Shown in pieces: positions 29,223 to 62,688 of a stretch of 64,000 nucleotides of DNA. A program made the translations under genes and the position numbers. This DNA is from an uncultured bacterium (GTDB lineage Bacteria > Bacteroidota > Ignavibacteria > Kapaibacteriales > UBA2268). The notes below the pieces were generated by a model. The model searched no databases. It worked only from the letters and a program-made list of their open reading frames with translations, and was not told the DNA's origin. The DNA is taken from the NCBI GenBank assembly GCA_942490685.1, contig CALNXW010000016.1, positions 2,341,703-2,405,702 on the forward strand. The letters run 5' to 3'. The first letter of the stretch is position 1. Each line of letters opens with the position of its first letter.

Positions 29223-29316
29223 ATGAGTATAAATAATTAAATAATAACCGAATACTGTTCTTTCCCTCTGAAAATTGACCCGTTTTTGTCAGCAAAATTG
29301 ACCCACCCCAATATAA

Positions 29317-38845: not shown

Positions 38846-39043
38846 TGTAGTTAATGATAGTCTAATGCTGCAGGGTATTCTCAGTAAGCTACAACATGCT
38901 GCTGCACTTTTTCCGTTTACGTCAGAAAGCAATAATTTTCAAGGTCTGAAAGTTGATAAATTCTGTGGACATCATCTTTTTTCTGATAGAGAGAATAGTA
39001 TAACAAGTAACAATATAGTTCACACACTAATAAATTAACGCAC

Positions 39044-46503: not shown

Positions 46504-47316
46504 TTATTTCTTATTAAAATATTCCTGTATTTTGATAAGATCAGGGTCTTTCATTGATTTGTAGGGTTCTTTGATTGTATAAGTAGCGGTAGACTCCAAA
46601 TATGGATCTACCTGAAGACCAAACGCCTTCGTTACCTCTAAATAAAACTGATTTAAATCAGTTTTATAGAATCTATTATAGATTTGCTTTAGTTTTAAAA
46701 ACTCTTTATCAATCCGACTTTCAGATGTTTCATCATTGTCAAATATAGAATTTAGAAAAATCAATCTTATATCTGCTGGTGCATATATTTGATTAATACA
46801 ATAATTAAGTATCAAAACTAAAGCAGTATATTTACTACTGCGCATTATTACTGATTGGAAAACACTAGGATCGATATAGCTAGTTGGAAAAGTAACAGAA
46901 CCAGACTGTTTTGATTCAAAGTGTCTTGAAGACAATCCATAAAGAGCTGATAATAAAGTATCAGCACTATTATTCTCATAGGATAATAAAAATGGAATAA
47001 TATCAGAATCAGATTCAAAAAATACATTTACTCCTTCTAAAAGCATGTTGTATCTTTCAAAAAACATATTCTTATCGATCATAAAATTTAAATTATTATT
47101 TAATATTATACAAGTATCTGAACTATTCAGATTAGGCATTTGACTAATTGGTAATGACGGCTTTTTCAATAAATGCAAAGCGTAAAAATCCTCAACCAAC
47201 GCCCATTTGCTTATAAACTCTTTACTTTCAAAATTTTGACTTGTCTGCTGTTCTCCCAGTGATATACAAGTGAGACTAACTAAGAAAATCATACTTGATA
47301 AAAAAAGGTACTTCAT
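46504..47316 (-). CDS. Hypothetical secreted protein
   Basis: 270 aa with a signal peptide (MKYLFLSSMIFLVSLTCISLG). No recognisable motif. Confidence 0.4.
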   Translation of the reverse strand: MKYLFLSSMIFLVSLTCISLGEQQTSQNFESKEFISKWALVEDFYALHLLKKPSLPISQMPNLNSSDTCIILNNNLNFMIDKNMFFERYNMLLEGVNVFFESDSDIIPFLLSYENNSADTLLSALYGLSSRHFESKQSGSVTFPTSYIDPSVFQSVIMRSSKYTALVLILNYCINQIYAPADIRLIFLNSIFDNDETSESRIDKEFLKLKQIYNRFYKTDLNQFYLEVTKAFGLQVDPYLESTATYTIKEPYKSMKDPDLIKIQEYFNKK

Positions 47317-47444: not shown

Positions 47445-50400
47445 TTAGTCTCTATCAGCTAAGTATTTGTACATTTCATATCTTTCTGTAACGTTATCCT
47501 GAGCCATTGCATAATATTTAGCAGCAATTTCAGGATTAGCTTTAGTAAGCATTCTGAAACGGTTTTCCATGTTCATAAAGTCTTTAACATCCATTTTTGG
47601 AGGTTTAGAATCTAATTTGAATGGATTTTTGCCTTCTAGAGTCAAAGTTGGATTGTATCTGTAAAGCAACCACTGACCTGAATCAACTACAGCTTTTTGA
47701 TGCTTCAATGGAGAAGACATATCGATACCGTGAGCGATACAGTGTGAGTATGCTAAGATAATAGAAGGTCCGTCATAAGCTTCTGCTTCTAAGAAAGTCT
47801 TAAGAGTATGGCTGTCATTTGCACCAAGTGCAACAGAACCAACGTAAACAGTACCATAGCTCATTGCCATCATACCAAGATCTTTCTTACGAGTCGGTTT
47901 ACCACCGGCAGAGAATTTAGCAATTGCACTAAGTGGAGTAGCTTTAGAAGTCTGACCACCTGTGTTAGAGTAAACTTCTGTATCCATAACTAGGATATTA
48001 ACGTTTTGGCCTGTAGCAATTACGTGATCAAGACCACCGTAACCAATATCATAAGCCCAACCGTCACCACCAACGATCCATACAGATTTTTTAACTAAGT
48101 AATCAACAAAAGTAAGAAGTCGTTTAGCTTCGTATTTGTTGTTACCAACAAGTTTATCTTTAACTGCAGCAACTCTTTCTCTTTGCTCAGCAATACCTTT
48201 TTCATCTTTTTGGTCTGCATTTAAGATAGCATCAACCAAATCCTGTCCTAAATCACCAGCTAATTCAGTAATCATTTGTTTAGCCATAGCTTCTTGTTTG
48301 TCAATTGCCAAACGGAAACCAAGACCAAATTCAGCATTATCTTCAAATAGTGAGTTAGACCAAGCCGGGCCACGTCCATTTTGATCAAATGTCCATGGAG
48401 TAGTAGGAAGGTTACCACCATAAATTGAAGAACAACCTGTAGCGTTAGCCACTACAGCTCTGTCGCCAAATAACTGAGAAACTAATTTAACATAAGGAGT
48501 TTCACCGCAACCTGCGCAAGCGCCGGAGAATTCGAACAATGGTCTTTGCATCTGCTGCTGACGAATAGCATCTACTTTAAGAGTAGTTCTGTCCGGATCA
48601 GGAATGCTTAAGAAGAAGTCCCAGTTCGCAGCTTCAGACTTACGGATTGGCGGCTGTGGAGCCAAATTAATCGCTTTAAGAGCAGTATTAGTTTTATTTT
48701 TAGCAGGACAAACTTCAACACAAACGCCGCAACCTGTACAATCTTCAGGAGCAACTTGTACTGTATATTTCATGCCTTTGAATGCTTTATCAGAAGAATC
48801 AGTAGATTTAAATGTTTCAGGTGCATTTTCCAATACTGCGCCGTCATAAGCTTTAACACGGATAGCAGCGTGAGGGCAAACCATAGAACATTTACCGCAC
48901 TGGATACAAACAGCTTCATCCCATACAGGAATTTCTAACGCGATAGAGCGTTTTTCCCACTGAGAAGTACCAGTCGGGAAAGTACCATCTTTAGGGAAAG
49001 CACTTACAGGAACATCATCGCCTTTACCTGCAATCAAGTGAGATAAAGTATTTTTAACGAACTCAGGAGCTTTGTCAGATACGTCATTGCAAATATCAAA
49101 TTCAGAAGTAACAGTATCTTTAACTTCGATTTCGTGTAAGTGTTCCAAAGTATTGTCAACAGCTTTAAGGTTCATGTTTACAATTTCATCACCTTTTTTG
49201 CCGTATGTTTTCTTGATAGAATCTTTAATAGCTGCAATAGCTTCATCGCGTTTCAATACACCGGAGATTGCAAAGAAGCAAACCTGCATTACAGTATTGA
49301 TTCTACGACCCATACCTGAATTTTCAGCTACAGTTTGAGCGTCAATTGCATATACTTTGATTTTTTTATCGATAATGATTTTCTGAGTAGTTTTAGGAAG
49401 TTTATTCCATACTTCAGCAGGATCACCAGGGATATTAATCAAGAAAGTACCACCTTCTTTGATATTCTCTAACATATTGTATTGCTCTAAGAATACTGTT
49501 TGGTGGCAAGCAATGAAGTTAGCAGAAGTAATAAGGTATTCAGAACGAATAATCTCAGGCCCGAATCTTAAGTGAGAAGTAGTCAAAGAGCCTGCTTTTT
49601 TAGAGTCATATACAAAATAACCTTGCGCATAGTTATCAGTGTTTTCACCAATAATTTTGATTGAGTTTTTGTTTGCACCAACTGTACCATCAGAACCCAA
49701 ACCAAAGAATATAGCACGGATTACATTTTCTTTTTCAATATCAAAAGATTTATCATAATCTAAAGAAGTGTTAGAAACGTCGTCTTTGATACCAACAGTG
49801 AAGTGGTTTTTAGGAGTTTCCAAAGATAAGTTATCGTAGATAGCTTTAACCATTGCAGGAGTAAACTCTTTAGAAGAAAGACCGTAACGACCTCCAACTA
49901 CTTTAGGGAAGTTTGTCAAATTACCATAGCCACTGTTGATGCCTTCAAAGATAGCATTAAGCACATCGTTATATAAAGGTTCTCCAACTGCGCCCGGCTC
50001 TTTAGTTCTATCCATCACTGCAATTTTCTTAACAGTAGCAGGAAGAACTTCCATAAAGCGTTTGATATCAAACGGACGGTAAACTCTAACGTTTACTAAA
50101 CCAATATTTTCGCCTTTAGCAGATAAATAGTCTATCGTTTCACGAACAGTTTGCTCAGCAGAACCCATAATCACGATTACTTTTTCAGCAGTATCTGAGC
50201 CATGGTATTCCATTAATTTGTACTGACGGCCTGTTAGAGAAGCAAATTTGTCCATTTGTTTTTGGATGATATCCGGGCAAGCTTCATAGAATCCGTTTAC
50301 AGTTTCTCTATTTTGGAAGAAAACGTCTGGATTTTGAGCAGTACCACGAATTACCGGATGATCAGGAGAAAGAGATCTTTCTCTGTGAGCAGTCACTAAA

Positions 50401-50996
50401 TCATCATTAATCATTTCTTTCATTACATTATCTTGTAAAAGCTCAATTTTCGCAACTTCATGAGAAGTACGGAAACCGTCAAAGAAATGTAGGAATGGAA
50501 TTCGAGATTCTAAAGTGGAAGCCTGAGCTATTAGAGCCATATCCATTACTTCTTGAACAGAATTGGAACCAATGAAAGCAAAACCTGTTGCTCTTGCAGC
50601 CATAATGTCACTGTGATCACCAAAAATGGAGAGTGCATGAGTAGCCAAGGAGCGAGCTGTGATATTGAACACTGTAGGTGTCAATTCGCCTGCTATTTTG
50701 TACATATTTGGTATTTTAAGTAGCAAACCTTGAGATGCTGTAAAAGTTGTAGTCAAAGCACCAGCTTGCAAAGAACCGTGAACAGCACCGGCTGCACCAC
50801 CTTCACTTTGCATTTCGCATACTACCGGCACATTGCCCCAAATATTTTTGATACCTTTTGCAGCCCATTCATCAGCCCATTCGCCCATATTAGATGACGG
50901 TGTGATTGGGTAAATCCCGCATACCTCGTTCACACGGTACATCGTATAAGCAGCTGCCTCGTTTCCATCAATAGTCGCATATACTTTCTGACTCAT
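47445..50996 (-). CDS. nifJ: Pyruvate:ferredoxin (flavodoxin) oxidoreductase, single-chain PFOR
   Basis: 1183 aa. The N-terminus MSQKVYATIDGNEAAAYTMYR...YPITPSS is classic PFOR. Ferredoxin-type CxxCxxCxxxCP motifs occur at CIQCGKCSMVCP and CTGCGVCVEVCP. A TPP domain follows. Confidence 0.95.
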   Translation of the reverse strand: MSQKVYATIDGNEAAAYTMYRVNEVCGIYPITPSSNMGEWADEWAAKGIKNIWGNVPVVCEMQSEGGAAGAVHGSLQAGALTTTFTASQGLLLKIPNMYKIAGELTPTVFNITARSLATHALSIFGDHSDIMAARATGFAFIGSNSVQEVMDMALIAQASTLESRIPFLHFFDGFRTSHEVAKIELLQDNVMKEMINDDLVTAHRERSLSPDHPVIRGTAQNPDVFFQNRETVNGFYEACPDIIQKQMDKFASLTGRQYKLMEYHGSDTAEKVIVIMGSAEQTVRETIDYLSAKGENIGLVNVRVYRPFDIKRFMEVLPATVKKIAVMDRTKEPGAVGEPLYNDVLNAIFEGINSGYGNLTNFPKVVGGRYGLSSKEFTPAMVKAIYDNLSLETPKNHFTVGIKDDVSNTSLDYDKSFDIEKENVIRAIFFGLGSDGTVGANKNSIKIIGENTDNYAQGYFVYDSKKAGSLTTSHLRFGPEIIRSEYLITSANFIACHQTVFLEQYNMLENIKEGGTFLINIPGDPAEVWNKLPKTTQKIIIDKKIKVYAIDAQTVAENSGMGRRINTVMQVCFFAISGVLKRDEAIAAIKDSIKKTYGKKGDEIVNMNLKAVDNTLEHLHEIEVKDTVTSEFDICNDVSDKAPEFVKNTLSHLIAGKGDDVPVSAFPKDGTFPTGTSQWEKRSIALEIPVWDEAVCIQCGKCSMVCPHAAIRVKAYDGAVLENAPETFKSTDSSDKAFKGMKYTVQVAPEDCTGCGVCVEVCPAKNKTNTALKAINLAPQPPIRKSEAANWDFFLSIPDPDRTTLKVDAIRQQQMQRPLFEFSGACAGCGETPYVKLVSQLFGDRAVVANATGCSSIYGGNLPTTPWTFDQNGRGPAWSNSLFEDNAEFGLGFRLAIDKQEAMAKQMITELAGDLGQDLVDAILNADQKDEKGIAEQRERVAAVKDKLVGNNKYEAKRLLTFVDYLVKKSVWIVGGDGWAYDIGYGGLDHVIATGQNVNILVMDTEVYSNTGGQTSKATPLSAIAKFSAGGKPTRKKDLGMMAMSYGTVYVGSVALGANDSHTLKTFLEAEAYDGPSIILAYSHCIAHGIDMSSPLKHQKAVVDSGQWLLYRYNPTLTLEGKNPFKLDSKPPKMDVKDFMNMENRFRMLTKANPEIAAKYYAMAQDNVTERYEMYKYLADRD

Positions 50997-51673
50997 ACAA
51001 GGAACTCCTAAACGTAATAAATGTATAAAAATGTCGTATATTGAGATCGTTTTAAATTCTGTCAGGGAAAGCGTATAATTCCCGTCCTCAAATTAACAAA
51101 ATTTTTTACAAATATCCACATCTTATATACAGAATCCGAATATTAAATAGGATTTCATTTACAAAGCTAAGTCTATTAAATTTGAGACATTTGAAAATAT
51201 TTCTATACTATCCTATAAACTCAATATAATTTGTTACTTCTTATATTTCGTATACTAATTTTAGTTTTATGTAATCTTATTTAAAATTCAAAATATTCGT
51301 AATGCTTATTTTAGAAGGATGTACATCTTCATCAGTGAAGAGATACTAGTTAAGGCAACCTATGTGGTGTGTTGAGAATAACCAGCATTTAGCTTGTAGT
51401 TATTTGTAGTGCTATCTGTAAAAATTACAAAACACACTCATAATAAAAATAGAGATAATTTATTCATTTTATTTTTCTATATTCGTTAACATAATAGATA
51501 TAATCATTCTTTTAAATTTTCTAGAATTTTCATTTGTATTCTTGAAAATTGAGTGTTTACACCCCACTGATAACGCGTTGAATATTAAGAGTACTTCTAT
51601 GTTTAGACAAATTCGAAATGAATAATGAGGTCAAAAAACAAACTAACTTCGTTCCTTTAGAATGTGTTTAAAA

Positions 51674-52303
51674 CTATTTTATTTCTAGGCTTCCACGATC
51701 CACTTTATCTTGTATCCTTGTTAAATGGAAGGACAGTTTAAATAGGAAAAGATACGCACCATAATCACTTAGAGTAAATAATTTTGAAGAATTTAATTTA
51801 TCTCTCGAATACTTCTTATTACTATGATTATTAATCCTATCCAGGAATACGATAGAATCATCTATTACATCTTCGAACTTTGGTAAATAAAATATTTGTG
51901 TAATTTCTTGTCTTTTTATTGATCCTACATGTTGTTTAATTGCTTCTTCTGGCTTCTCATTTTTTATTAGTATATCTTGATATTTCTTCAAGTTAAAGAT
52001 AGGTGCATAAATAATATGAGAAGGAAAGAATCGTTTGTTTGCTAAATCCATATCGCATGTGTTCGATATTACCATACAAGGAGCTTCTTTAATTGTAGTG
52101 TCAGGGAGATTAACAACTAGCAAATTGTTCAATCCATCACCTTGATATATGACATTATCCCCAACTAGATTCTTAGAATAAATTCTTTTGTCCATATTTT
52201 CAGGGAATCTTGACAATTCCTGATAAAGGATTCTCTCTGAATTCGAAGATAAATACTTCGGTAAATATAACTGTAAATCCTCTAAAGTCATATCAAATCC
52301 CAA
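51674..52303 (-). CDS. Hypothetical protein, third gene of an overlapping three-gene operon
   Basis: 209 aa, no recognisable motif. Its start overlaps the upstream gene by 16 nt. Confidence 0.5.
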   Translation of the reverse strand: MGFDMTLEDLQLYLPKYLSSNSERILYQELSRFPENMDKRIYSKNLVGDNVIYQGDGLNNLLVVNLPDTTIKEAPCMVISNTCDMDLANKRFFPSHIIYAPIFNLKKYQDILIKNEKPEEAIKQHVGSIKRQEITQIFYLPKFEDVIDDSIVFLDRINNHSNKKYSRDKLNSSKLFTLSDYGAYLFLFKLSFHLTRIQDKVDRGSLEIK

Positions 52304-52593
52304 AAATTGTCATCTACGATATCAATTATATCTGGATCAATATCTTTTGTATTGCTTATTAGTTTTTGAGCAAAAGTTACAATTGTCTCAGATTTATCAT
52401 GTTTAGAAAAAGCATCATAATCGTAAGTTTTAAAACCATTATCATTCCATTTGGAAATATCAGCCAATCTTTCTGCATTATAATCTGCATGTTGTGCCAC
52501 TTCTGTAATATTTGCTTCATACGGCAACGGAGTCACACATGTACTAGCAGTTACAGTAAGGAAAAACAAATTTTGTTTTGTTATTAACTCCAT
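52288..52593 (-). CDS. Hypothetical small acidic protein, middle gene of the three-gene operon
   Basis: 101 aa with an acidic C-terminus (DIDPDIIDIVDDNFWDLI). Its start is 2 nt from the upstream stop. Confidence 0.45.
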   Translation of the reverse strand: MELITKQNLFFLTVTASTCVTPLPYEANITEVAQHADYNAERLADISKWNDNGFKTYDYDAFSKHDKSETIVTFAQKLISNTKDIDPDIIDIVDDNFWDLI

Positions 52594-52594
52594 T

Positions 52595-53299
52595 TCAATA
52601 CTCCGGATTTAGTGTATTCAAAAAATCTTGATTCAATAGATTATAAAAGACAGATTTTTCAGTATCATGTATTAAAGAAATCAAGTTCTCTTTCTTAACA
52701 AAAAAATTCGATACATCATTAATTGAAATTGTATCGATGTCTATAAATGAACCCTGTTTTCCATCGTATTCCTGGTTGTTAGCAATTTGTAAAATGCTTT
52801 TAAATTGCTCTTCTACTATTTCAGTTTTAATCACAGTATTTTTATAATTAATTGGTTCCTGTTTTAGCGAAATATTCAAATCAATATTTTCAAAAATATT
52901 ATTTTCGAAAAAATTGATGTATCGAAGCCCTATTCTTTCAACATTATTAATTATGTTTAGAGTCTTTACTTCATCAATAATACTGATTATTTCGGAAAAT
53001 AGTGCATTCCAACCCAAATATTTAGGATAACAGCTTATACTTAAAACTTCTGGACCAATTTGAACAGCCAGTTGAGAGTTTGCAATTTTATAATGAGGTT
53101 TAAACCTAAAGTTAGGATCTTTTGCTCTTAGAGCCTCTGGAATCTGTAAAATTGGTAAATTTTCAGCATTCGGGAACTTGTCCTGTAAAACACCATATAT
53201 CATACCAAAAATTGCATTTGAAGGAATTCTTGATGTAAACCTTAGTTCAAAAAGAGCTTCTATAATTGGACATGGCTGTATTGATTTTGGATTGCCCAT
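52595..53299 (-). CDS. Hypothetical protein, first gene of the three-gene operon
   Basis: 234 aa. The N-terminal PIIEALFELRF is reminiscent, from memory only, of the uncharacterised TIGR04255 family. No catalytic motif recognised. Confidence 0.5.
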   Translation of the reverse strand: MGNPKSIQPCPIIEALFELRFTSRIPSNAIFGMIYGVLQDKFPNAENLPILQIPEALRAKDPNFRFKPHYKIANSQLAVQIGPEVLSISCYPKYLGWNALFSEIISIIDEVKTLNIINNVERIGLRYINFFENNIFENIDLNISLKQEPINYKNTVIKTEIVEEQFKSILQIANNQEYDGKQGSFIDIDTISINDVSNFFVKKENLISLIHDTEKSVFYNLLNQDFLNTLNPEY

Positions 53300-53452
53300 G
53301 ATAACCAGTTTTATTGTTTATAAATACTTTCTTGTAACAATATACGAATTAGTATAATAAATCGTACAAAATGGGGATAAATAGTACCAAATCTTTAAGG
53401 CATAGTACGATTTAGATTAAAAAAAGGTTCATAAACAAACCAAAAGTATAAA

Positions 53453-53746
53453 ATGTTTTTTTCCACAAAGCATCCTGAATTTTGTAGTTCTTTTCTTTCC
53501 TTTTCTGAGCGTTATCACACAATTCAAAAGATATTTCAAACTTATCTTGGTAAAATTCAAGTATATCAAAAATTTAAAATATTTGATATGGGTATGATTA
53601 TCTATGTAAATGGAAAAGAAAGGTTTGTTGTCACAGAAGTTGAAAGATCCATCGACATATCAAATTTGGAATCAGGTGTTTATTTCTTGATAATAGTTGA
53701 TAATCTAGGAAATCCTTATCGTTCCAAATTTATAGTAGAAAGATAA
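53453..53746 (+). pseudogene. Remnant of a T9SS-CTD protein gene (C-terminal sorting domain only)
   Basis: The last ~50 aa (IYVNGKERFVVTEVERSIDISNLESGVYFLIIVDNLGNPYRSKFIV) match the T9SS CTD. The upstream part is unrelated, non-secreted-looking sequence. Confidence 0.5.
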
Positions 53747-53790
53747 ATTTATCCACTGAACGGGATAGACTAACTAAAATACAGCAAAAA

Positions 53791-53850
53791 GAAGTGGGTC
53801 AACCTCCCACTTCTATTATATATATATTTGCGTGTGGGAATTCCTCCCAC
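53791..53850. terminator. Tandem hairpins between convergent lexA and the CTD remnant
   Basis: GAAGTGGG-tcaacct-CCCACTTC is a perfect 8-bp stem. GTGGGA-attcc-TCCCAC is a 6-bp stem. T-runs follow on the lexA (minus) strand. Confidence 0.6.
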
Positions 53851-53856
53851 TATCAT

Positions 53857-54492
53857 TTAGATTTTACTGAGTTTACCCACAATTACCCCCAATATTTGCA
53901 AATCGGGTTCTGTGTCACCATTTATTACTGAAAATCCTTTTCCTGCCGGGTGAAGCTCAAAGCCGAATAAGTTGCTCACATACTCTCTTACTATGTACCG
54001 CTCCCCTATTTTCGCGGCTATAAGTTTTCCGTTTTCAGGTTCAACCGATTTATCTACAATAACAACATCCCCCGGCGAAAGATCTTTTTTCAGCATTGAT
54101 TTGTCTATAATAAAGATAGCGAGAGCTTCGCCTGATAAACCGAAATAAGTTTTATCTACAGCCATGGCAGCACCTGTATACTCTTTCGGCGTATTGTACA
54201 ATTTTAGCCCTTCTGTTTGCTTGATAGCCACCTCTTCAGTGGTTTTTCTTCCGGCTTTTTTAACAATTTTTATACCACGGGAAGCCCCTTTGGCAATCCT
54301 TTTGATATATCCTTTTTTCTCTAATGCAGTAAGCACCTGATGCACTCCATTAGTGGATGCAAAGCCGAATTCATTGCATATATCCTTGATTGTAGGCGGC
54401 ATATTATCGCGCTTTATGATGCGTTTGATAAAATTGAGTATCTCTCTTTGCCTGTCTGTGAGCTGGTTTTTCTTTCTTCTACCGACTGCCAT
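53857..54492 (-). CDS. lexA: LexA-type repressor (winged-helix LexA DNA-binding domain plus S24 self-cleaving peptidase domain)
   Basis: The N-terminus LTDRQREILNFIKR...GVHQVLTALEKKGYIKR...SRGI matches the LexA DNA-binding domain. The C-terminal S24 domain has a Ser-Lys dyad context (IIDKSM ... GKLIAAKI). Confidence 0.85.
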   Translation of the reverse strand: MAVGRRKKNQLTDRQREILNFIKRIIKRDNMPPTIKDICNEFGFASTNGVHQVLTALEKKGYIKRIAKGASRGIKIVKKAGRKTTEEVAIKQTEGLKLYNTPKEYTGAAMAVDKTYFGLSGEALAIFIIDKSMLKKDLSPGDVVIVDKSVEPENGKLIAAKIGERYIVREYVSNLFGFELHPAGKGFSVINGDTEPDLQILGVIVGKLSKI

Positions 54493-54769
54493 GTCTTGAA
54501 ATCCGATTTATTCAACAAAAGAGTATATAATTGTATTGACGAATATCGTCCTGAAAGAGTATTCAGTAAAAATTATGCCAATTTAAAAAAGTATTATTGC
54601 AATATTTTCATAGTGCTATTCTGCAAACATATAATAATGTCAATACAAATCGTTAATTTGGCTTTTTTTGCATATTTTCGAGCATTTTCGAGTGGATAAG
54701 TATTTTTCAAAAATTCTAAAAACTTTTTTTCTGATAAAGTGGTGATTTGTGTTATTTGCATACATCGAT

Positions 54770-54795
54770 GTGGGAGAAAGTGGGGTAAACACCCA
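54770..54795 (+). promoter_or_regulatory. Candidate MraZ operator: GTGGG repeats with 10-bp phasing upstream of mraZ
   Basis: The sequence GTGGGagaaaGTGGGGtaaaCACCC lies 45-70 nt upstream of the mraZ ATG. In E. coli MraZ binds phased GTGGG repeats in its own promoter. Confidence 0.4.
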
Positions 54796-54840
54796 TAGTA
54801 TTCCACAAAATTGTGCCGGCAAATAATTTGACAATCTGAT

Positions 54841-55290
54841 ATGGCTTTTTTTAAAGGACAAGAACTTTACTCTCTTGACAGTAAGGGTAGGGTCAATATC
54901 CCAGCTAAAATGCGAAAAGGGATATCGCCCGAGGCTAATGGCACCTTTACCGTTACACGTGGTAAGGATAAGTGTATAGAAGCTTATCCTCTCGACGAAT
55001 GGAAGAAGTATGAAGAGAGGTTCGAATCCCTTAACCAATACGACCCAAAAAACAGACGATTCCTAAGGATGATTCTGATGTGGTCTGAAGAGGTTAATCT
55101 GGATAGCCAACAAAGGATTTCTGTTCCTAAAAAACTTTTAGAATATGCAGGAATAGATAAAAAAGTCCTTATTTGCGGGATGGGTGACCATATAGAATTG
55201 TGGGATCCTGAAGAATTTGAGAAATATTTAGATAGCGAAGAAATAAGCTATGAAGAAGTTTCCGGTACTGTGATGGGAGAAACATTTTAA
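54841..55290 (+). CDS. mraZ: Transcriptional regulator MraZ
   Basis: 149 aa. Duplicated MraZ/SpoVT-AbrB fold with the characteristic LDSKGRVNIPAKMR. Confidence 0.9.
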   Translation: MAFFKGQELYSLDSKGRVNIPAKMRKGISPEANGTFTVTRGKDKCIEAYPLDEWKKYEERFESLNQYDPKNRRFLRMILMWSEEVNLDSQQRISVPKKLLEYAGIDKKVLICGMGDHIELWDPEEFEKYLDSEEISYEEVSGTVMGETF

Positions 55291-56300
55291 TGGGGAAAAA
55301 GAAAACATCACAGCACAAGTCAAGCAAAACTAGAATTGACAAAAGCATGGCGGTAGAGTACAATTATCACTTACCGGTTATGCTTAAGGAAACAATAGAT
55401 TTTCTGGTTACAGACACAAATGGTATTTATATAGACGGAACGCTCGGAGGTGGTGGGCATGCAGCCGAGATATTGTCAAAGTTAGATTCTGGGGGGAATT
55501 TAAGAGCCTTTGACAAACACATCACAGCTATCGAGCATTGCAATGCAAGATTTAGTGATGAACTCAAAAGAGGAACCTCGAGTCGTCTCCGTTTATATAA
55601 TTACTGCTATTCTAAGGTCTGCACCTTCGATGAAATTAGGGGGCAAATATCAGGTCTCTTGTTGGATCTTGGCGTTTCCTCAAAGCAGTTAGACACAGAC
55701 TCTCTCGGACTTAGTTACAGAGTAGATTCCAAACTCGATATGAGATTTGGAGATACTGGTTTGACGGCAGGGGACCTGTTATCTACCATTACAGAACCCG
55801 AACTTATCGACATTCTCCGAAATTACGGCGAAGAGCCTATGGCGAAACGAATCGCCCACAGCATCATCCAAAGAAGAAATTCCAACACAATGAACACTAC
55901 TTTTGATTTGCGCGAAGCTGTCGAAGAACGAGTGCCTCAATCGCTGCATTTTAAGGCCTTGTCACGTGTTTTTCAAGCTATTCGAATTGCGGTAAATCAA
56001 GAGCTGAAAGTGCTCGAAGATACGCTCAAAGGCATTATTCCTATGCTCGCTCCGGGTGGAAGGATTGTAATACTCTCCTACCATTCACTGGAAGACAGGA
56101 TTGTAAAAAATATTTTTAAAGAGCATTCCAAAAAGCCTAAAGTGAACAGGCAACATCCAGATTTTGACAAAGTTAAGCACACTCCGCCTCTAACTTTGCT
56201 CACACCTAAACCCATGCTCCCAAGTGAGCATGAAATCCAAATAAATCCTCGTGCACGCAGCGCTAAGCTCAGAGTAGCTGAAAAGACTGTAGTGGAGTAG
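55290..56300 (+). CDS. rsmH: 16S rRNA (cytosine1402-N4)-methyltransferase RsmH
   Basis: HLPVMLKETIDFL...GIYIDGTLGGGGHA is the SAM-dependent MTase N-terminal signature. The real start may be M20 (MAVEYNYHLPVML). No ftsL or ftsI follow. Confidence 0.9.
   Translation: MGKKKTSQHKSSKTRIDKSMAVEYNYHLPVMLKETIDFLVTDTNGIYIDGTLGGGGHAAEILSKLDSGGNLRAFDKHITAIEHCNARFSDELKRGTSSRLRLYNYCYSKVCTFDEIRGQISGLLLDLGVSSKQLDTDSLGLSYRVDSKLDMRFGDTGLTAGDLLSTITEPELIDILRNYGEEPMAKRIAHSIIQRRNSNTMNTTFDLREAVEERVPQSLHFKALSRVFQAIRIAVNQELKVLEDTLKGIIPMLAPGGRIVILSYHSLEDRIVKNIFKEHSKKPKVNRQHPDFDKVKHTPPLTLLTPKPMLPSEHEIQINPRARSAKLRVAEKTVVE
56272..56294 (+). repeat. Left copy of the 21-23 bp direct repeat flanking the three-Cys/TcmP cassette (the last codons of rsmH)
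   Basis: AGTAGCTGAAAAGACTGTAGTG recurs at 58421-58443 as AGTAGCTGAAAAGACTGTGGTG, one mismatch. Confidence 0.8.
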
Positions 56301-56308
56301 GATCCTAA

Positions 56309-57058
56309 TTATAAATAAAAACTATTATATATGCTTGAAGGAAATTCCTGCCATACCTGGCCATCAATTTCTTTTCCATTGGACTTTTTATTTCGCTTAA
56401 TTTTATCAGCTCCCCAAGTACCCCATTGTTTGAAGAAGAATGCTACATTTTTCTTCTCGCATTGTTGTTTAATATTTAGTACCCATTCTTTATCCATTGG
56501 TCTGGCTTGTACCCCACTTTCACCACCAACAATGACCCAATCTATTCCTTCAAGATTTAACTCTCCTAAATCCTCCAATAGAGGTTCCACTGAAAGAAAT
56601 TTTACTGATGCTTTCATATCTCTAAGATAATCGATTCTTGGTATGCCTTCTTTTCTATTTTCGACAGTTACTCCTAGCCAAATATTTTTGGGAATACTTC
56701 TTTGAGTTAAGTATTCTGCCATAGCTTTAGCACGCTTAGTTAGAATCTGATAAGTATGTTGAGGAGTGTTTTCTATTACATCAAAAATTTGATCCAGATA
56801 TTCTTTTGGCATTTTTTCGTGGAAAATATCACTCATTGAGTTCACGAAATATACTGTAGGCTTCTTTCTTTTATAAGGATCTAATAATCTACTTGGTACA
56901 AGTTGAAACTCAAAACCATTTTCATATCCTTCGACATTCATTGCTTTAAGCCTTCTAGCCATAGTTTCTGCATAGCAGTTTTTGCATCCTGAACTCACTT
57001 TTGTGCATCCGGCTGACGGATTCCAAGTTTGTTCAGTCCATTCTATTTTATGAGCCAT
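56309..57058 (-). CDS. Phage Gp37/Gp68-family (DUF5131-like) three-Cys-motif protein
   Basis: The probable start M29 (MAHKIEWTEQTWNPSAGCTKVSSGCKNCYAE) gives ~250 aa. W-N-P followed by C-x6-C-x2-C matches the family signature as I recall it. The ORF track extends the start to 57142. Confidence 0.6.
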   Translation of the reverse strand: MAHKIEWTEQTWNPSAGCTKVSSGCKNCYAETMARRLKAMNVEGYENGFEFQLVPSRLLDPYKRKKPTVYFVNSMSDIFHEKMPKEYLDQIFDVIENTPQHTYQILTKRAKAMAEYLTQRSIPKNIWLGVTVENRKEGIPRIDYLRDMKASVKFLSVEPLLEDLGELNLEGIDWVIVGGESGVQARPMDKEWVLNIKQQCEKKNVAFFFKQWGTWGADKIKRNKKSNGKEIDGQVWQEFPSSIYNSFYL

Positions 57059-57177
57059 GATTCTTTCCCCCCCAGGTGTGAATTTTGAATCTATTTTGGC
57101 AAAATTATCAATATTATTTTTAAAGGCGATTGAAAAACACAATATTGCAAGTCTTTTTAAAACAATAAAGTTGTATT

Positions 57178-58305
57178 TTATTTTTTTTCTTGTAATATAA
57201 ATCGTACCTTTCTTTTATCATTACCAATATAATTCCCCTTATTAGAGCCTTTATCTAATGATATGACTTCCAATCTTTTTTCATTATTGAAAGTTTTTAA
57301 AATCTCATTAGTATGTTTTGGCAACATATCATTTTTTAATCCAAATTCAAAAAGATCATGATTAGTTACTATCTCTGTATTTGTCAAATATTCTTCAAGT
57401 TTGTCTTTATATGTAATTTTTTTTAAACTGAATAATTGCGTTGTTTTATTTTGATTATATCCTTTGCCTTCTTCATTGTCCATTTTCCATTTTGCTTCAA
57501 GCATAGCTTTATGCCCCTGTTTATTTGGAGAAAAGAACATCAAACAATAGAATTTATTTGTTTCCTTTTCAATGTGAAAGTAAGAAATCCAACGATTGGG
57601 AAATTTTGATTTGAAGCGATTACTTAAGCTTTCTATGAACACTAATGCTGACGTATGTTGTTTTAATTTCTCTGGAAAAAGATAATCAATCAATTTCTTT
57701 AATGGCAAAAAACCTTTGTTTTCTTTTTCTTGAACGGTGTATGCAAACCTATACATTTGATCTATTGGTAGAAAAAGCAAAAGCTCGGCTTTATCATTAT
57801 TTAAAACTTTTTCTAGAAAATCTATAGTTATATCTTTGTATCCAAATGGATCTATAAATAAAAGTGCACGTTCATTTTTTTTCAATCCATATAGACTAGA
57901 CAATACTTTAGGAATTAATTCTGTAAACTCTCGCCTTGTAAACTTATATTCTACTTTAGGATTTTCAAATCTTGAAACACAAAAATTTTGGACACGTTCA
58001 ATTTTCCATTTGTCTTCTTCTATTGTAGACTTTTGACTATCATTAAAATGGAAATAAATATTAGGTATAGATTTAAATTTTTCTAAATGTTCCTTTACAA
58101 CATTAACAGCTATCAATGGACTACCTTCTTGGCTATCTTCATAAATACCTTCACCTGCGAATAAATCATATAAATACACATTCTTAATATTTTTCGCATA
58201 ATCTACGATATTTAGATATACAGATAAATAATATTTATAAAGCTCGACTTTAGCAACTGAATGTGACGGTAGTATTGCAGAATCTCCTTTCTTTTTCACT
58301 TTCAT
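57178..58305 (-). CDS. Putative three-Cys-motif partner protein (TcmP-like), co-oriented immediately upstream of the Gp37/Gp68-like gene
   Basis: 375 aa, 36-bp gap to the downstream gene. Size and genomic pairing fit the TcmP (TIGR04474) / DUF5131 pair. Sequence-level membership could not be verified without an HMM. Confidence 0.4.
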   Translation of the reverse strand: MKVKKKGDSAILPSHSVAKVELYKYYLSVYLNIVDYAKNIKNVYLYDLFAGEGIYEDSQEGSPLIAVNVVKEHLEKFKSIPNIYFHFNDSQKSTIEEDKWKIERVQNFCVSRFENPKVEYKFTRREFTELIPKVLSSLYGLKKNERALLFIDPFGYKDITIDFLEKVLNNDKAELLLFLPIDQMYRFAYTVQEKENKGFLPLKKLIDYLFPEKLKQHTSALVFIESLSNRFKSKFPNRWISYFHIEKETNKFYCLMFFSPNKQGHKAMLEAKWKMDNEEGKGYNQNKTTQLFSLKKITYKDKLEEYLTNTEIVTNHDLFEFGLKNDMLPKHTNEILKTFNNEKRLEVISLDKGSNKGNYIGNDKRKVRFILQEKK

Positions 58306-58420
58306 CTAACACCCCTCATTATCTCAATATTAATTATTACACGATACAATACAATATAATATTATTATTTATTAAATTCTAAGCAATAATCCTTATTATT
58401 ATAATTTTTTTATTTATCAC

Positions 58421-58443
58421 TAGTAGCTGAAAAGACTGTGGTG
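58421..58443 (+). repeat. Right copy of the rsmH-3'-end direct repeat
   Basis: See the 56272..56294 entry. Confidence 0.8.
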
Positions 58444-58455
58444 CTGTGGTATGCT

Positions 58456-58487
58456 TACCGCAAGCTAAAGCATGCGGTTGCACTGTA
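58456..58487 (+). repeat. REP-like palindromic element, left copy 1
   Basis: TACCGCAAGCTAAAGCATGCGGTTGCACTGTA. Its reverse complement recurs at 59257-59285. Confidence 0.65.
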
Positions 58488-58643
58488 GATCATTATCCAC
58501 TTTGTTTTTGGTTTTATTAGTATATATCTATTTAAATATCAGTAGCAATAAGCATTGAGACACGTGCCGCAAACTACACTTTCCTACGACGATACTTTGG
58601 ATAAACTTTTCGCTTTGTTTGCGGCTATCGAGCTTGTCGAGAT

Positions 58644-58670
58644 GCAGTGAAATTGTGCGGTTGCACTGTA
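58644..58670 (+). repeat. REP-like element, left copy 2 (shares the core TGCGGTTGCACTGTA)
   Basis: GCAGTGAAATTGTGCGGTTGCACTGTA, internally palindromic (CAGTG...CACTG). Confidence 0.55.
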
Positions 58671-58710
58671 AATACAATTTATGTTTATTTGAATCATCTT
58701 ATATTCTAGT

Positions 58711-59241
58711 TTGAAGAAACTATATTACTTCTATTCTCCAATTGTTTTTGATATTATTAATATGGAACTAAATAATAAGATTTGGCATGTAACTTGGGTT
58801 ACTCGTAATAGTCGTATCAGTGAAAGAATGATACTGGCGCGAGTAAAGCTTGAGAATCCAGTCACACTGACTGATGAAATGCGTAATATTGTTGCAGAAA
58901 GTATCAAATTAAAGATTAAAGAAGAATCAATAAAGATTTATGCTCTTAATGTTCTAATGGATCATGTTCATATTATAATTCAATCGTCTGAAACTGAACT
59001 TGAAGAAATTGTGCGTAAGTTAAAAGGCTATTCCTCTTATCAAATATCCAAAACTTTGGGTTACACATCAAAAGGTCAAGGCAAACAAACTAAAATCTGG
59101 GCTACCAGCTTCAGCAAAACTTTAATCAGAGATAAAAAGCATCTTTTAGAATCAATCAACTACATTAAAAATAACCACCTAAAACATAATGTTACTCCAT
59201 GTAAAGCACTCTTGTTTTTCTCACAGAGTCCAATAAAGTAA
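58711..59241 (+). CDS. HUH-family Y1 transposase (IS200/IS605 TnpA-like; REP-associated tyrosine transposase candidate)
   Basis: HuH motif HVHIIIQ. Conserved KGYSSYQIS and a C-terminal catalytic Tyr context (SINYIKNNH). The real start is probably M18 (MELNNKIWHVTW), giving ~159 aa. Confidence 0.75.
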   Translation: MKKLYYFYSPIVFDIINMELNNKIWHVTWVTRNSRISERMILARVKLENPVTLTDEMRNIVAESIKLKIKEESIKIYALNVLMDHVHIIIQSSETELEEIVRKLKGYSSYQISKTLGYTSKGQGKQTKIWATSFSKTLIRDKKHLLESINYIKNNHLKHNVTPCKALLFFSQSPIK

Positions 59242-59256
59242 TATTAAAATATATAA

Positions 59257-59285
59257 GAGTGCAACCGCATGCTTTAGCTTGCGGA
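59257..59285 (-). repeat. REP-like element, right copy (inverted)
   Basis: GAGTGCAACCGCATGCTTTAGCTTGCGGA is the reverse complement of left copy 1, 27 of 28 positions. Confidence 0.65.
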
Positions 59286-59694
59286 GCTTTATCAAGAGCT
59301 TCATGTCTCAGATCTGTACTTAGGTGAAACTTGACGCTATTTACTGTTCCCTATAGCTCAAAGTTTCGAACTGGTCAATATTCCCAAGCATAGCGAAAAG
59401 TTAATCTTAGGCTCAGTCTAAGAAAAGTGCAGCTTACAAAGCTTTGAATAACCTAAAAAATCAGATGACATAAATATTAATTATTCACCACAGTGCAATC
59501 CCTGAGTATATATATTTGATATATAATAACTAGATTCTAACAGTCTCATACAATCATCATTATGAAAGCTATTGACTTGAGTGGACTTACACCGTATCTT
59601 TGTATATATAAACTCATGACAAGAAGAATTTTGGCCAAGGTTCGAAGTATAGTTTGGAAGAAGAAAAATATATCAAAAATATAGGAAAAAAAAG

Positions 59695-60567
59695 ATGATT
59701 GATCTAAACACAGTTAAGGTTCTATACAAATATAGAACTTTTGAGAGCAAATTTGACAGACGTCTACTTTGGCTTAACGAATTATTTTTTGCCAAGAAGC
59801 ATATGCTGAATGATCCTTTCGACTTAGGACTTGAGCCTGATTATTCTCAGACAACAAAAGATCAATGGTGTAAAGTGGCATTAAGAAGTATCAATTCAAA
59901 TCAAGTGTTATCAGATAACCAGAGAGTAAAACTTCTAAAAGAAGAAATAATAAAAATTGATAATGGGACGAGTGATTTGCAAAAGAATCACAAAGAAGCA
60001 ATTTTTGGAAATGCACGAAATGAAAATAAGGAATTCAAAGAAGGAAAGATAAACAAAATGTGCATTCTTTCTCTTGTTGCTGACAACCCAACTAATTCTC
60101 TAATGTGGGCACATTATTCATCCTCACACCAAGGTTTTTGTATAGGATATAACGCCACTGAGCTTTTTAATTATCTTACAACATTGAAAGACCAACATGA
60201 ATTTACTCAATTAGCTGTAAAGTATAAAGACTATTATCCTAAAGTAAATCCATTAACTAGCACAGAATTTTATCTAGACCTACTCTACACAAAATCTATT
60301 GAATGGGATTATGAAGATGAAGTGAGGATAATCAACGAAACCACACATCCGAACCATAATAATGGATTTGCAATTTACTATCCAAATAAACTTGTTCGTG
60401 ATATAACCTTAGGCTTATATTGTTCGGAAGAGAACAGAAACATGGTCGTTAATCGTATTAATGAAATGAATTCACTCCACAATCTTTCTATAAAATTGTA
60501 TCAAATAACAAAAGAAGATTATTCCTACGAGTTTAAAAGAAAAGACATTTCGGAACTCTTAAGTTAA
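59695..60567 (+). CDS. Hypothetical protein, DUF2971-like
   Basis: 290 aa. The N-terminal LYKYRTFES...LNELFFAKKHMLNDPFD resembles the conserved N-terminal block of DUF2971 proteins, from memory only. Confidence 0.4.
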   Translation: MIDLNTVKVLYKYRTFESKFDRRLLWLNELFFAKKHMLNDPFDLGLEPDYSQTTKDQWCKVALRSINSNQVLSDNQRVKLLKEEIIKIDNGTSDLQKNHKEAIFGNARNENKEFKEGKINKMCILSLVADNPTNSLMWAHYSSSHQGFCIGYNATELFNYLTTLKDQHEFTQLAVKYKDYYPKVNPLTSTEFYLDLLYTKSIEWDYEDEVRIINETTHPNHNNGFAIYYPNKLVRDITLGLYCSEENRNMVVNRINEMNSLHNLSIKLYQITKEDYSYEFKRKDISELLS

Positions 60568-60656
60568 GCAGTTAGACTAAGAAGAGACTTTGAAAAAAAG
60601 TCTCTTCTTAACTTCTATATAATCTATTATTACTTACTCCCCACACAACCAATACA

Positions 60657-62345
60657 TTAAAAATCTGTTCCATATTGAAACTTAATGGTTATAGGAAGTC
60701 TTTTTTCTCCGTTGAAAGTTTGGTTTGGACTGAAGCCTCCCAGTGTGGCTATAGCAGTTACAGCTGACTGATCAAATAACTCACCGGCGCTTTTTTCCAC
60801 TTGAATATTTTGAGCATTGCCCTTATTATCTACTTCAAATGAAAGTTCTACATCTGCATCTAACTTCTCTGCTTTAGCTTCTTCAGGATACTGAATCAGT
60901 TTCGGTATTTTATTGCATTGTTTATGGCTGAGCACAGGCAAGCCCATTTTCCCAAAAGGAGCTTTTTCTGCCGGATTATCATAACCAATTCGGTGATCTG
61001 CATAAGGTAATTTTGTCATTACCGTACCTGATGCGTTATATGCGTACCACTTTTGCTTATCCCCTACTATAATATGGAAATTATGTAGAGATTTAATTGG
61101 CTTACCATTCTTAATTGCAGGAGTATATTTAGGACTTATATCTCTTATGACTTTCATAATCTGAGCTTCCATTTCAGCATCTATGCTCTGATTTTTCCAA
61201 CTTTCATCATCAGCATACTTTGCATTAGTAAAATAAGGCTCCCCTATTTCTCCGTTTTCATCAATTTCATAATGGACACTAAATTTTGCTACTTTGTCCC
61301 CGCTTGCCCATTCGTCTGTAAGATTCAATCTGGAAAGAATCTCTTCAGACATAATGTCAAATTCAGAAACCGCATATTTATCAGGTGTTTCGTAGGCTGA
61401 ATTATCCCATGTTTTAAAAGATGTACCTGAATCACAAGCAAACACAAAGAAGAGGCTTGCAATTACAGGTAATAAAAGCATATACTTCAATGCTGAAGTT
61501 CCGGATGATTTCTTTTTATCCATCATTTTGATCCTTTTTATTAGTTTAATACCATTGAAACTATTTGCCAGAGTGGCTACATTTGCGCCCATAGTAATAT
61601 CAAGTAGTGAATTTAAATATTCAGATTTGCTTTCTGTAGCTTTACTTGCTCCTGAATCAGCAATATATTCATGTATAGCTTTCAAGTCTCTTTCAAAAAG
61701 ATAGAAAAACGGGTTCAATATCTGGAATGCTTTCAAAATTTGCATCAAATGGATATCTATATTGTGCCACTGTTTTGCATGTGTTAGCTCGTGGGCTATT
61801 ACAGCATCCCTAGCTGCACTTTCAAAGACAGAACGCGACAGCAATATCTTATTGCAATATGTAAAGGGACTTATATCTCTATCAAGTATATATATCTTTT
61901 TTCCATCTACAGTTGTCATGTTGGCTCTATAAAACAGCATCCATATTTTTATATTTGAATATAAATATCTGCTTAGACCCAAAAGCACAGAAGCAAAGTA
62001 GACATAGAAGAAAATGTGATAAGGGTGCATTTGTATGTCAGTAGCTTCTTTGCTAATTAAAACAGGAGTACCGACCACTTCAGCAACATTTTCTACTTTA
62101 GAATTTATATTTACATATCTTATTTCATTTACGAGCGGGGCACTTGCCTCAAACTCCATAAGAGGAACTGCAAAAGAAGAAATTACAGAAACGATTATAA
62201 CAAACCTGTTTATCTGATGGAAAGTAGTACCTCTCAAAAACAGAAAATAGAGAGCATAAAGTACAGCTAGGCAAGTGGCAACTTCTATAGCATAATTTAT
62301 AAGTTCCATATTACTCTCCCTGCTTATTGTCAATCTCTTTGTCAA
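60657..62345 (-). CDS. BlaR1/MecR1-family M56 metallopeptidase signal transducer with C-terminal TonB-like domain
   Basis: Four N-terminal TM helices. HEXXH zinc motif at VIAHELTHAKQWH. The long C-terminal extracellular region ends in a TonB-C-like segment. Confidence 0.8.
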   Translation of the reverse strand: MTKRLTISRESNMELINYAIEVATCLAVLYALYFLFLRGTTFHQINRFVIIVSVISSFAVPLMEFEASAPLVNEIRYVNINSKVENVAEVVGTPVLISKEATDIQMHPYHIFFYVYFASVLLGLSRYLYSNIKIWMLFYRANMTTVDGKKIYILDRDISPFTYCNKILLSRSVFESAARDAVIAHELTHAKQWHNIDIHLMQILKAFQILNPFFYLFERDLKAIHEYIADSGASKATESKSEYLNSLLDITMGANVATLANSFNGIKLIKRIKMMDKKKSSGTSALKYMLLLPVIASLFFVFACDSGTSFKTWDNSAYETPDKYAVSEFDIMSEEILSRLNLTDEWASGDKVAKFSVHYEIDENGEIGEPYFTNAKYADDESWKNQSIDAEMEAQIMKVIRDISPKYTPAIKNGKPIKSLHNFHIIVGDKQKWYAYNASGTVMTKLPYADHRIGYDNPAEKAPFGKMGLPVLSHKQCNKIPKLIQYPEEAKAEKLDADVELSFEVDNKGNAQNIQVEKSAGELFDQSAVTAIATLGGFSPNQTFNGEKRLPITIKFQYGTDF

Positions 62346-62688
62346 TCATTTTCTTTATCTCCTCTAGCTCCTGGACACTTAAGTCCTTACTCTTCGTAAA
62401 AAATGACATTAGGTTTTTATAAGAACCTGAGAAATAGTTAGAGATAAAACCTTTCATAAAACTACCTGTGTATTCTTCTTTTGAAACCAGTGGATAGTAT
62501 TTATGCGTTTTGCCGAACTCTTCATGAGCTACATACCCTTTACTTTCCAATATCCTTACGATAGTGGAAATAGTTGTATATGCAGGTTTTGGGTCGTCCA
62601 TTTCATTTATAATTTCACGGACAAAAGCTTTTTCTTTACTCCATAGTATCAGCATAACCTGCTCTTCAGCTTTAGTGAGCTCTTTCAT
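62311..62688 (-). CDS. BlaI/MecI/CopY-family transcriptional repressor
   Basis: 125 aa winged helix (LTKAEEQVMLILW...TISTIVRILESKGYV). It overlaps its BlaR1 partner in the typical operon arrangement. Confidence 0.85.
   Translation of the reverse strand: MKELTKAEEQVMLILWSKEKAFVREIINEMDDPKPAYTTISTIVRILESKGYVAHEEFGKTHKYYPLVSKEEYTGSFMKGFISNYFSGSYKNLMSFFTKSKDLSVQELEEIKKMIDKEIDNKQGE

Follow-up and report, generated by a model that had tools for sequence, protein, structure and literature searches.

Why do mraZ and rsmH, the opening genes of the canonical dcw cluster of division and cell-wall genes (Pmra-mraZ-rsmH-ftsL-ftsI-mur), occur here as an isolated pair, divergent from a lexA-like gene and with accessory DNA on both sides? 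The arrangement lies at 51-60.6 kb of a 64-kb stretch of contig CALNXW010000016.1 from an uncultured member of the Kapaibacteriales (the whole 64 kb is referred to below as the window). A first-pass annotation explained it as one acquired island, in which mraZ-rsmH was either a duplicated dcw fragment or what remained of a dcw cluster recently broken by insertions. All of the genes named in that annotation were located by listing open reading frames (ORFs) and by profile searches (Pfam, NCBIfam, PADLOC, PHROG) of the window ORFs; we arrived at a different explanation of their arrangement. With a probability of roughly 0.7, the region as a whole is best explained as a core block of a LexA-derived pseudo-protease (pseudo-LexA) gene and mraZ-rsmH, with an ancestral orphan state of mraZ-rsmH and with cargo in two slots (A and B). 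The noteworthy element of the region is a catalytically degenerate LexA subfamily that is stably paired with orphan mraZ-rsmH.

The mraZ gene (54841-55290, plus strand) encodes a two-domain protein (Pfam MraZ, 7e-35, 119 bits; TIGR00242, 129 bits vs. a cutoff of 98) with both of its DXXXR motifs (residue 13, DSKGR; residue 88, DSQQR). It overlaps rsmH (55290-56300, plus strand), which encodes the 16S rRNA m4C1402 methyltransferase (Methyltransf_5, 1.2e-88, 298 bits; TIGR00006, 285 bits vs. a cutoff of 154; PF01795 covers 306 of 309 positions), and the two form a two-gene unit in which rsmH is last. The LexA-family gene (53857-54492, minus strand) is divergent from this unit. A scan of a genome collection with RsmH assigned the window to Candidatus Kapaibacterium (Kapabacteria, FCB group). 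We compared the locus with those of the Candidatus Kapaibacterium genomes L002-L005 (the loci of relatives carry such labels throughout; L003 is a complete chromosome, OY761611.1), running tblastn and BLASTp with the relatives’ ORFs against the window. The three genes are collinear in all four, with 83-97% amino acid identity for LexA, 93-97% for MraZ and 86-96% for RsmH (L005, 96%; L004, 90%; L002, 89%; L003, 86%; by comparison, 57% in the more distant L006). PFOR, the left neighbor of the region (47445-50996, minus strand), adjoins the trio upstream in three of the four (L002, L004 and L005), and the GC content of the lexA-like gene, mraZ and rsmH (39-43%) is similar to that of PFOR. Because the trio (53.86-56.30 kb) is core-like in GC and, in relatives that have other flanks, collinear and 83-97% identical, with PFOR adjoining it in three of the four, it is core, and it separates two independent variable slots.

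These results bear directly on the idea of a single island built around mraZ-rsmH. Several features favor that idea: there are accessory genes on both sides, the flanks have low GC, and the inserted DNA directly abuts rsmH and is accompanied by a target duplication. Accessory, mobile and defence-type cargo does flank lexA-mraZ-rsmH, as the first-pass annotation had it, and this cargo differs between close relatives. However, the trio has core-like GC, relatives with empty or other flanks keep its synteny with PFOR, and the slots are two and separate. On the explanation that we prefer, the 51-60.6 kb region would be a mosaic, with a conserved core regulatory block between two recombination or insertion hot spots.

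The orphan state of mraZ-rsmH extends well beyond the window. No ftsL or ftsI follows rsmH in the window because the stop codon of a convergent gene, encoding a DUF5131 protein, sits only 8 nt past the rsmH stop, and a scan of the larger ORFs of the 64 kb turned up no dcw genes. The same absence holds for all 13 Kapabacteria loci considered (the window, L002-L006, L029-L033, L035 and L038). In L029-L033 (RsmH 51-65%) mraZ-rsmH stands alone, and the next gene is unrelated to it and usually convergent; the pair stands alone likewise in L006, L035 and L038. In L034, mraZ-rsmH is followed by a 627-bp gap that contains no credible ftsL and then by murF-mraY, and in L159 (GCA_026418625.1, Kapabacteria) murF-mraY is an isolated pair (3440-5986) between unrelated genes. 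Since ftsL/ftsI follow rsmH at 0/13 loci, L034 has rsmH-murF-mraY and L159 has a lone murF-mraY, the dcw cluster appears to be dispersed lineage-wide. The locus shares with the canonical dcw head the overlapping mraZ-rsmH unit and phased GTGG(G) repeats upstream of it; it differs in that the Kapabacteria unit stops after rsmH.

Both forms of the island explanation fare poorly against these data. If insertions had recently split the cluster, loci without them should retain ftsL/ftsI, but insertion-free L002, L003, L005, L006, L029-L033, L035 and L038 lack these genes after rsmH as well, and the synteny comparison did not place ftsL-ftsI further downstream in a conserved arrangement. The recent-split form is thus already contradicted. 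For the duplicate form, two RsmH clades would be expected, but RsmH shows a star-like pattern in these genomes (51-65% identity), in which the L034 copy, linked to mur genes (54-60% to the others), is no outlier relative to the orphan copies. Because this copy is as distant from the orphans as they are from each other, nothing points to a pair of paralogous RsmH clades, and the distances do not indicate that mraZ-rsmH is a duplicated dcw fragment. A query with the L034 MurF, with matches sought on known large contigs, returned none from the source genome and none from genomes closely related to it. Given that mraZ-rsmH is orphaned throughout the lineage, and murF-mraY too, we consider the island explanation highly improbable in either form. 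The orphan state is old, ancestral and lineage-wide in Kapabacteria, and was not caused by local insertions.

What, then, is the divergent partner? As a family assignment, the label lexA stands: the protein has a winged helix (LexA_DNA_bind, PF01726, 6.4e-22, residues 9-73) and an S24 domain (Peptidase_S24, PF00717, 1.8e-10), passes TIGR00498 (111.4 vs. a cutoff of 110.95) and aligns end to end with LexA chains in the PDB, its best structural relatives (1JHH, 3JSO and 3K2Z of T. maritima; E-values 4e-16 to 5e-14). The role of SOS repressor that the label implies is doubtful, given that the protein has neither an Ala-Gly site nor the catalytic Lys. In all five close genomes, the window included, Ala84-Gly85 of E. 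coli LexA aligns to Thr-Glu; the linker alignment is gappy and the exact residues at this position are uncertain, but there is no AG nearby. In the same genomes Lys156 is replaced by Arg (IVRE in the window protein) and Ser119 is kept (DKSM in the window protein).

These substitutions define a subfamily. Among 122 sequences (the 120 best database homologues, the window protein and E. coli LexA), 107 are canonical at all three positions (AG, Ser, Lys) and 108 have AG, while 14 make up a separate group that lacks AG and has Arg at Lys156 without exception (14/14); Ser119 is absent in half of these (7/14). Identity to the window protein is at least 83% in close relatives and then drops to 39% or less, with the next-best matches being pseudo-LexAs. 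Because Ala-Gly and the catalytic Lys are missing throughout the subfamily, and the Ser as well in half of it, pseudo-LexA most likely cannot self-cleave on RecA* and would not be an SOS switch. Compared with canonical LexA of E. coli, the winged helix, the S24 fold and a CTG-N10-CAG-shaped operator before its own gene are shared; the differences are the replaced Ala84-Gly85, the subfamily-wide Arg at Lys156, the loss of Ser119 in half of the members and a genomic partner that is mraZ instead of SOS genes. The predicted repressor would keep winged-helix DNA binding and dimerisation through the S24 fold, without a scissile bond or a catalytic Lys. There is a precedent in LexA of Synechocystis sp. 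PCC 6803, a regulator of non-SOS genes that has neither Ala-Gly nor the catalytic Ser (PMC7567884). Both have lost the Ala-Gly site along with part of the dyad; the cyanobacterial protein belongs to another lineage, has lost Ser where the Kapabacteria proteins have lost Lys, and has no reported mraZ/dcw link.

The pairing of pseudo-lexA with mraZ is retained over long distances. The contexts of five distant pseudo-LexAs (L034-L038) were examined, and three of these genes (L034, 39% identical to the window LexA; L035, 33%; L038, 39%) are divergent from mraZ-rsmH. Of the other two, the L036 gene lies downstream of an SLT/LysM protein gene and upstream of an Ala-racemase-like gene, and the L037 gene is near an NlpC/P60 gene. 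Divergent lexA and mraZ neighbors had been noted at the outset as unusual, which they are, and the pairing is moreover conserved in four deep lineages.

The spacer between the two genes carries a palindrome, CTGAAAGAGTATTCAG (54551-54566), of the form CTGAA-N6-TTCAG, which is the predicted pseudo-LexA operator. It lies within a spacer block that is invariant across 5 close genomes and is the sole exact copy of this pattern in the window. The pattern occurs exactly once, in the spacer, in the window and in 8/8 fetched loci with divergent pseudo-lexA and mraZ, and in 0/30 other fetched loci. In the distant lineages the palindrome reads ACTGAAAAT(A/T)T(A/T)TTCAGT. In the window, 58 bp separate it from the lexA-like start, and its distance to the start of mraZ is 274 bp. 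Its distance upstream of mraZ stays at 247-296 bp across lineages; the distance to the lexA-like start is 39-59 bp in three lineages and 303 bp in L034, the latter because repetitive extragenic palindromic (REP)-like elements have inserted there. GC-rich REP-like palindromes (CCCCTCC-NN-GGAGGGG) are found at 4386-5000 of L034, between the operator and the lexA-like start, and similar repeat-like sequence may fill the rsmH-murF gap of the same locus (2275-2900). By inspection, a TATA(C/T)T-like hexamer follows some 20-30 nt past the palindrome on the lexA-sense strand. This hexamer would place the palindrome over the -35 region of the lexA-like gene, consistent with autorepression: most likely, pseudo-LexA would bind CTGAA-N6-TTCAG over its own -35 region and repress itself.

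The palindrome is of a known LexA type. The LexA box of M. xanthus is CTRHAMRYBYGTTCAGS (PMC9705874), and the window site has the same dyad (CTGAA...TTCAG) with the same 6-nt spacer, agreeing with 14/17 positions of the IUPAC string. The two differ in setting. In M. xanthus the box belongs to a cleavable LexA with an SOS regulon, whereas the window box accompanies a pseudo-protease and, in the DNA examined, is confined to the lexA-like/mraZ spacer. A metagenome scan with ACTGAAAATNTNTTCAGT was also tried as a regulon finder and rejected as such; this is an AT-rich 16-base pattern for which chance matches were estimated to dominate. Among the matches listed, 5 of 120 loci had LexA (all canonical) and 0/120 had mraZ, so that the scan yields no regulon but is in favor of the motif being a LexA box. 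The five canonical LexAs (AAGKP / GDSM / ATLKRF) form a clade and are on the metagenome contigs L042, L129, L137, L139 and L153, with the box ACTGAAAAT.T.TTCAGT at the start of their own genes. Based on the M. xanthus-type dyad and on the same 18-mer at these five canonical lexA genes, pseudo-LexA seems to have lost the cleavage switch but kept the specificity of an ancestral LexA.

MraZ has its own predicted sites in the same spacer. Between the palindrome and mraZ there is a conserved GTGG-repeat block (54691..54795, plus strand), near-invariant in 5 close genomes, that contains GAGTGGATAAG (~54691), AGTGGTGA (~54737) and GTGGGAGAAAGTGGG, the last being an exact GTGGG-N5-GTGGG at 54770-54784. 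With up to one mismatch allowed, this pattern has 2 matches in the window vs. 0.4 expected, and the 54770 site is the exact copy; it is also present upstream of mraZ in L030, L032, L033 and L034. MraZ-binding repeats of the type GTGG-N6-GTGG have been described in E. coli, Bacillus and Mycoplasma (bioRxiv 10.1101/2022.02.09.479790). Going by the known behavior of the family, MraZ would most likely bind the GTGGG-N5-GTGGG repeats before its own gene and autoregulate. Paired hairpins, GTGGGAAATTTACCCAC and GGGAAT..TACCCAC, are located at the lexA 3' end in L002 (8480-8570) and L004 (5700-5800; both positions approximate); they are probably terminators and contain GTGGG/CCCAC cores like those of MraZ boxes.

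Does pseudo-LexA control mraZ? One way to connect the two is an SOS-controlled division brake, in which a working LexA is released upon damage, mraZ is derepressed and MraZ represses the dispersed division genes in trans. In Gram-positives, yneA, chiZ, divS and sosA are SOS division inhibitors divergent from lexA that encode small membrane/LysM proteins, and mraZ occupies the corresponding position. Common to both arrangements are a division-related gene divergent from lexA and a LexA box between the two genes; the Gram-positive inhibitors are under a cleavable LexA, whereas here a transcription factor, MraZ, is the neighbor, and no cleavage is predicted for the LexA. The brake would account for a divergent arrangement that four deep lineages share, each with a single LexA-type palindrome in between, for an operator-mraZ distance that is held at 247-296 bp even as the distance to the lexA-like gene shifts, and for pseudo-LexA genes away from mraZ (L036, L037) that have no operator. 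It would also fit with B. subtilis, in which MraZ overproduction represses ftsL and blocks division (bioRxiv 10.1101/2022.02.09.479790). However, RecA-triggered cleavage is unlikely in a subfamily that lacks Ala-Gly and the catalytic Lys, and in half of its members the Ser, and the operator is beside the lexA-like promoter and not beside the MraZ boxes or the mraZ start. We regard such a brake as unlikely.

A possible, still tentative, extension of the core-block explanation is that pseudo-LexA serves mraZ-rsmH as a dedicated local regulator outside the SOS response, the divergent genes being co-regulated in answer to another signal. The divergent pairing, the single palindrome and the held mraZ distance favor it as they do the SOS brake, the non-cleaving Synechocystis LexA is a precedent (PMC7567884), and the other pseudo-LexA genes are near cell-wall genes (SLT/LysM and Ala-racemase-like in L036, NlpC/P60 in L037). 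Against it, mraZ-rsmH occurs without a pseudo-LexA neighbor or operator in L006 and L029-L033, and adjacency by itself is no demonstration of regulation. In addition, the operator is ~40 bp upstream of the best sigma-70-like mraZ promoter candidate (54607-54635, from a scan that did no better than chance), a non-classical position for a repressor. Recruitment of a previously undescribed LexA-derived pseudo-protease, with a Myxococcus-type box, as the partner or regulator of mraZ-rsmH is put forward here as something that may have happened.

The cargo in slot B (56.3-60.6 kb), downstream of rsmH, differs in every close genome examined (the window and L002-L005). In the window, rsmH is followed by the convergent DUF5131 gene (56309-57142, minus strand; DUF5131, 2.5e-108), encoding a three-Cys protein, and by a TcmP gene (57178-58305, minus strand; TIGR04474, 8.9e-41). 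L004 has DUF5131 (87% amino acid identity) in the same tail-to-tail position, and DUF5131 was not found at the L002, L003 and L005 loci. The genes downstream of rsmH are a 175-amino acid (aa) ORF, BamD and an AAA_16 protein in L002; a REP-associated tyrosine transposase (RAYT; 80% aa identity to that of the window), then an acyl-ACP thioesterase and phosphofructokinase, in L003; and REPs with an opposite-strand RAYT, an aminotransferase and an M49 peptidase, then BlaR1/BlaI, in L005.

The DUF5131-TcmP pair is bounded by a duplication of the end of rsmH. The last 22 nt of the gene (AGTAGCTGAAAAGACTGTAGTG, 56273-56294, plus strand), which form its present 3' end, recur as AGTAGCTGAAAAGACTGTGGTG at 58422-58443 (plus strand), a predicted vestige of the original 3' end, with 0 chance matches expected. 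What lies between the repeats is exactly the DUF5131-TcmP pair with the spacer upstream of it. Copy 2 shows the GTGGTG variant with which rsmH also ends in L005 and L003, while copy 1 is of the L002/L004 type and runs on as GTAGTGGAGTAG, which is identical to L002 and near L004. An insertion at the 3' end of rsmH would have duplicated the 22-nt target and brought in a replacement rsmH end. The resulting 2.1-kb DUF5131+TcmP cassette would sit upstream of an older REP/RAYT unit, with the DUF2971 gene next. Integrative islands likewise have flanking direct repeats derived from the 3' end of a target gene; the cassette here differs in being without a recombinase. In PADLOC terms the pair corresponds to PDC-M30, with component A (TcmP; PDC-M30A, 1.7e-88) and component B (DUF5131; PDC-M30B, 6.3e-117) adjacent on the same strand as near full-length hidden Markov model matches; what sets it apart from that system is its bounding by a 22-nt duplication of the end of a housekeeping gene, again with no recombinase.

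The RAYT unit (58458..59284, plus strand) starts immediately after repeat copy 2, and its L003 homologue directly follows rsmH. It consists of a Y1 (IS200-like, REP-associated) transposase ORF (58711-59241, plus strand, probable ATG at 58763; Y1_Tnp, PF01797, 1.6e-12) and of REP-like arms. The REP-like repeats of the first-pass annotation proved to be a perfect 27-nt inverted repeat around the transposase (58458-58484 and 59258-59284) together with a partial third copy (58656-58673), and no copies beyond the RAYT flanks were detected in the 64-kb window. An HVH-motif Y1 transposase between inverted, hairpin-forming repeats is shared with REP/RAYT elements; differences are that, within the 64 kb, the repeat is seen solely at the transposase flanks and that the NCBIfam REP_Tyr_transpos match (2.9e-20) scores 72.6, below the cutoff of 80. 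Acyl-ACP thioesterase and phosphofructokinase genes, which follow rsmH-RAYT in L003 (12155-13966), are found in the window at 38066-40000, ~16 kb upstream of rsmH. This displacement is a rearrangement with the RAYT/REP unit at its junction.

Further downstream, a DUF2971 gene (59695-60567, plus strand; DUF2971, 4.9e-9; PDC-S31, 1.6e-43; phrog_1762) was not found at the L002-L005 loci and has a terminator-like hairpin 3' of it (60578-60610, by terminator scan). Several proteins of slots A and B match PHROG families without an assigned function. GC is 27% for TcmP and 31-32% for RAYT and DUF2971. The right edge of slot B is marked by two core genes, which by Pfam encode a BlaR1-like sensor (M56 plus TonB_C; 60657-62345, minus strand) and the BlaI repressor (62311-62688, minus strand). 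In L005, BlaI is 91% and BlaR1 55% identical to the window proteins, and a shared gene at 93% comes next. A recombination boundary inside BlaR1 was considered and rejected, as the divergence from L005 (15296-17327) is spread over the whole protein; because it spans the entire protein, the BlaR1-like sensor appears to evolve fast beside a conserved BlaI. The defence cargo as such is ordinary and mainly marks the 3' flank of rsmH as an insertion hot spot.

Slot A (51340..53800, edges approximate) extends from the PFOR promoter region to the 3' end of the lexA-like gene, and homology with L002, L004 and L005 stops ~190-370 bp beyond the PFOR start. In L002 and L004 the slot is a bare 665-bp spacer, and in L005 it holds a DUF5685 gene and a gene for a 727-aa protein of the type IX secretion system (T9SS; L005:6274-8457). 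The window has a three-gene operon (51674-53299, minus strand) made up of orf209 (51674-52303; phrog_4575), orf101 (52288-52593) and a gene for a TIGR04255 protein (52595-53299; TIGR04255, 1.1e-35; phrog_5464). This operon has no PADLOC match and was not found at the L002-L005 loci. It is followed by a 97-aa T9SS sorting-domain remnant (53453-53746, plus strand; Por_Secre_tail, 3.5e-5, under the Pfam cutoff), whose final 54 aa match the C-terminus of the 727-aa L005 protein at 74% identity. Since only ~54 C-terminal codons remain at this identity, the operon appears to have taken the place of most of the T9SS gene: on its arrival, this phage-associated, low-GC TIGR04255 operon would have deleted the rest. 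Between the remnant and the lexA-like stop, a terminator scan found two GC-rich hairpins (53790-53814 and 53834-53850), which are likely bidirectional terminators.

The genes of slot A have a GC content of 28-30% (29-30% for the three-gene operon), and in tetranucleotide composition no 2-kb segment of the 64 kb deviates more than 51001-53000 (z = 3.5, GC 27.7%). This contrast in composition supports a foreign origin for part of the region, and we infer that the flanking cargo was horizontally acquired.

Other parts of the window show insertions and repeats of their own. A minus-strand run at 25-34 kb was tried as a set of dcw genes and rejected, as it consists of T9SS-tail paralogs with IS21 and IS30-like insertions. 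The four paralogs (~470 aa each; 25204-28110 and 31731-34629) are interrupted at 28114-31528 by an IS21-type pair (transposase, 30059-31528; IstB, 29317-30069) and an IS30-like integrase (28114-29121). Five successive plus-strand ORFs of 344-365 aa form an apparent tandem paralog array at 4701-10020. Between a DHOD-like gene and PFOR there is a 270-aa ORF (46504-47316, 28.7% GC) that has no Pfam or PHROG match and looks like a small insertion, because the DHOD-like gene and PFOR are ~110 bp apart in L002/L004.

Four observations weigh against the explanation favored here. The window copy of pseudo-LexA retains Ser119, and the effect on cleavage of Arg at Lys156 is predicted from the protein sequence. 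A sigma-70 scan of 53.3-60.7 kb gave 36 sites vs. 32 expected, no better than chance. No integrase or recombinase lies between the 22-nt repeats, just DUF5131 and TcmP. Lastly, PDC-M30 and PDC-S31 are candidate anti-phage systems only.

The pseudo-LexA subfamily would be the second clear case, after some cyanobacterial LexAs, in which binding specificity is kept and self-cleavage is lost, and it is relevant to the repurposing of SOS repressors. The subfamily also advises caution with the automatic annotation "transcriptional repressor LexA", because pseudo-LexA clears TIGR00498 by only 0.4 bits. To our knowledge, the signal that controls MraZ is poorly understood; a conserved divergent partner with its operator is a concrete candidate for the upstream signal in one lineage. 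Dispersed dcw genes are a natural setting in which MraZ may act in trans, with its operon reduced to mraZ-rsmH. If pseudo-LexA does regulate mraZ-rsmH, it would provide a damage-independent input into MraZ control of dispersed division and cell-wall genes.

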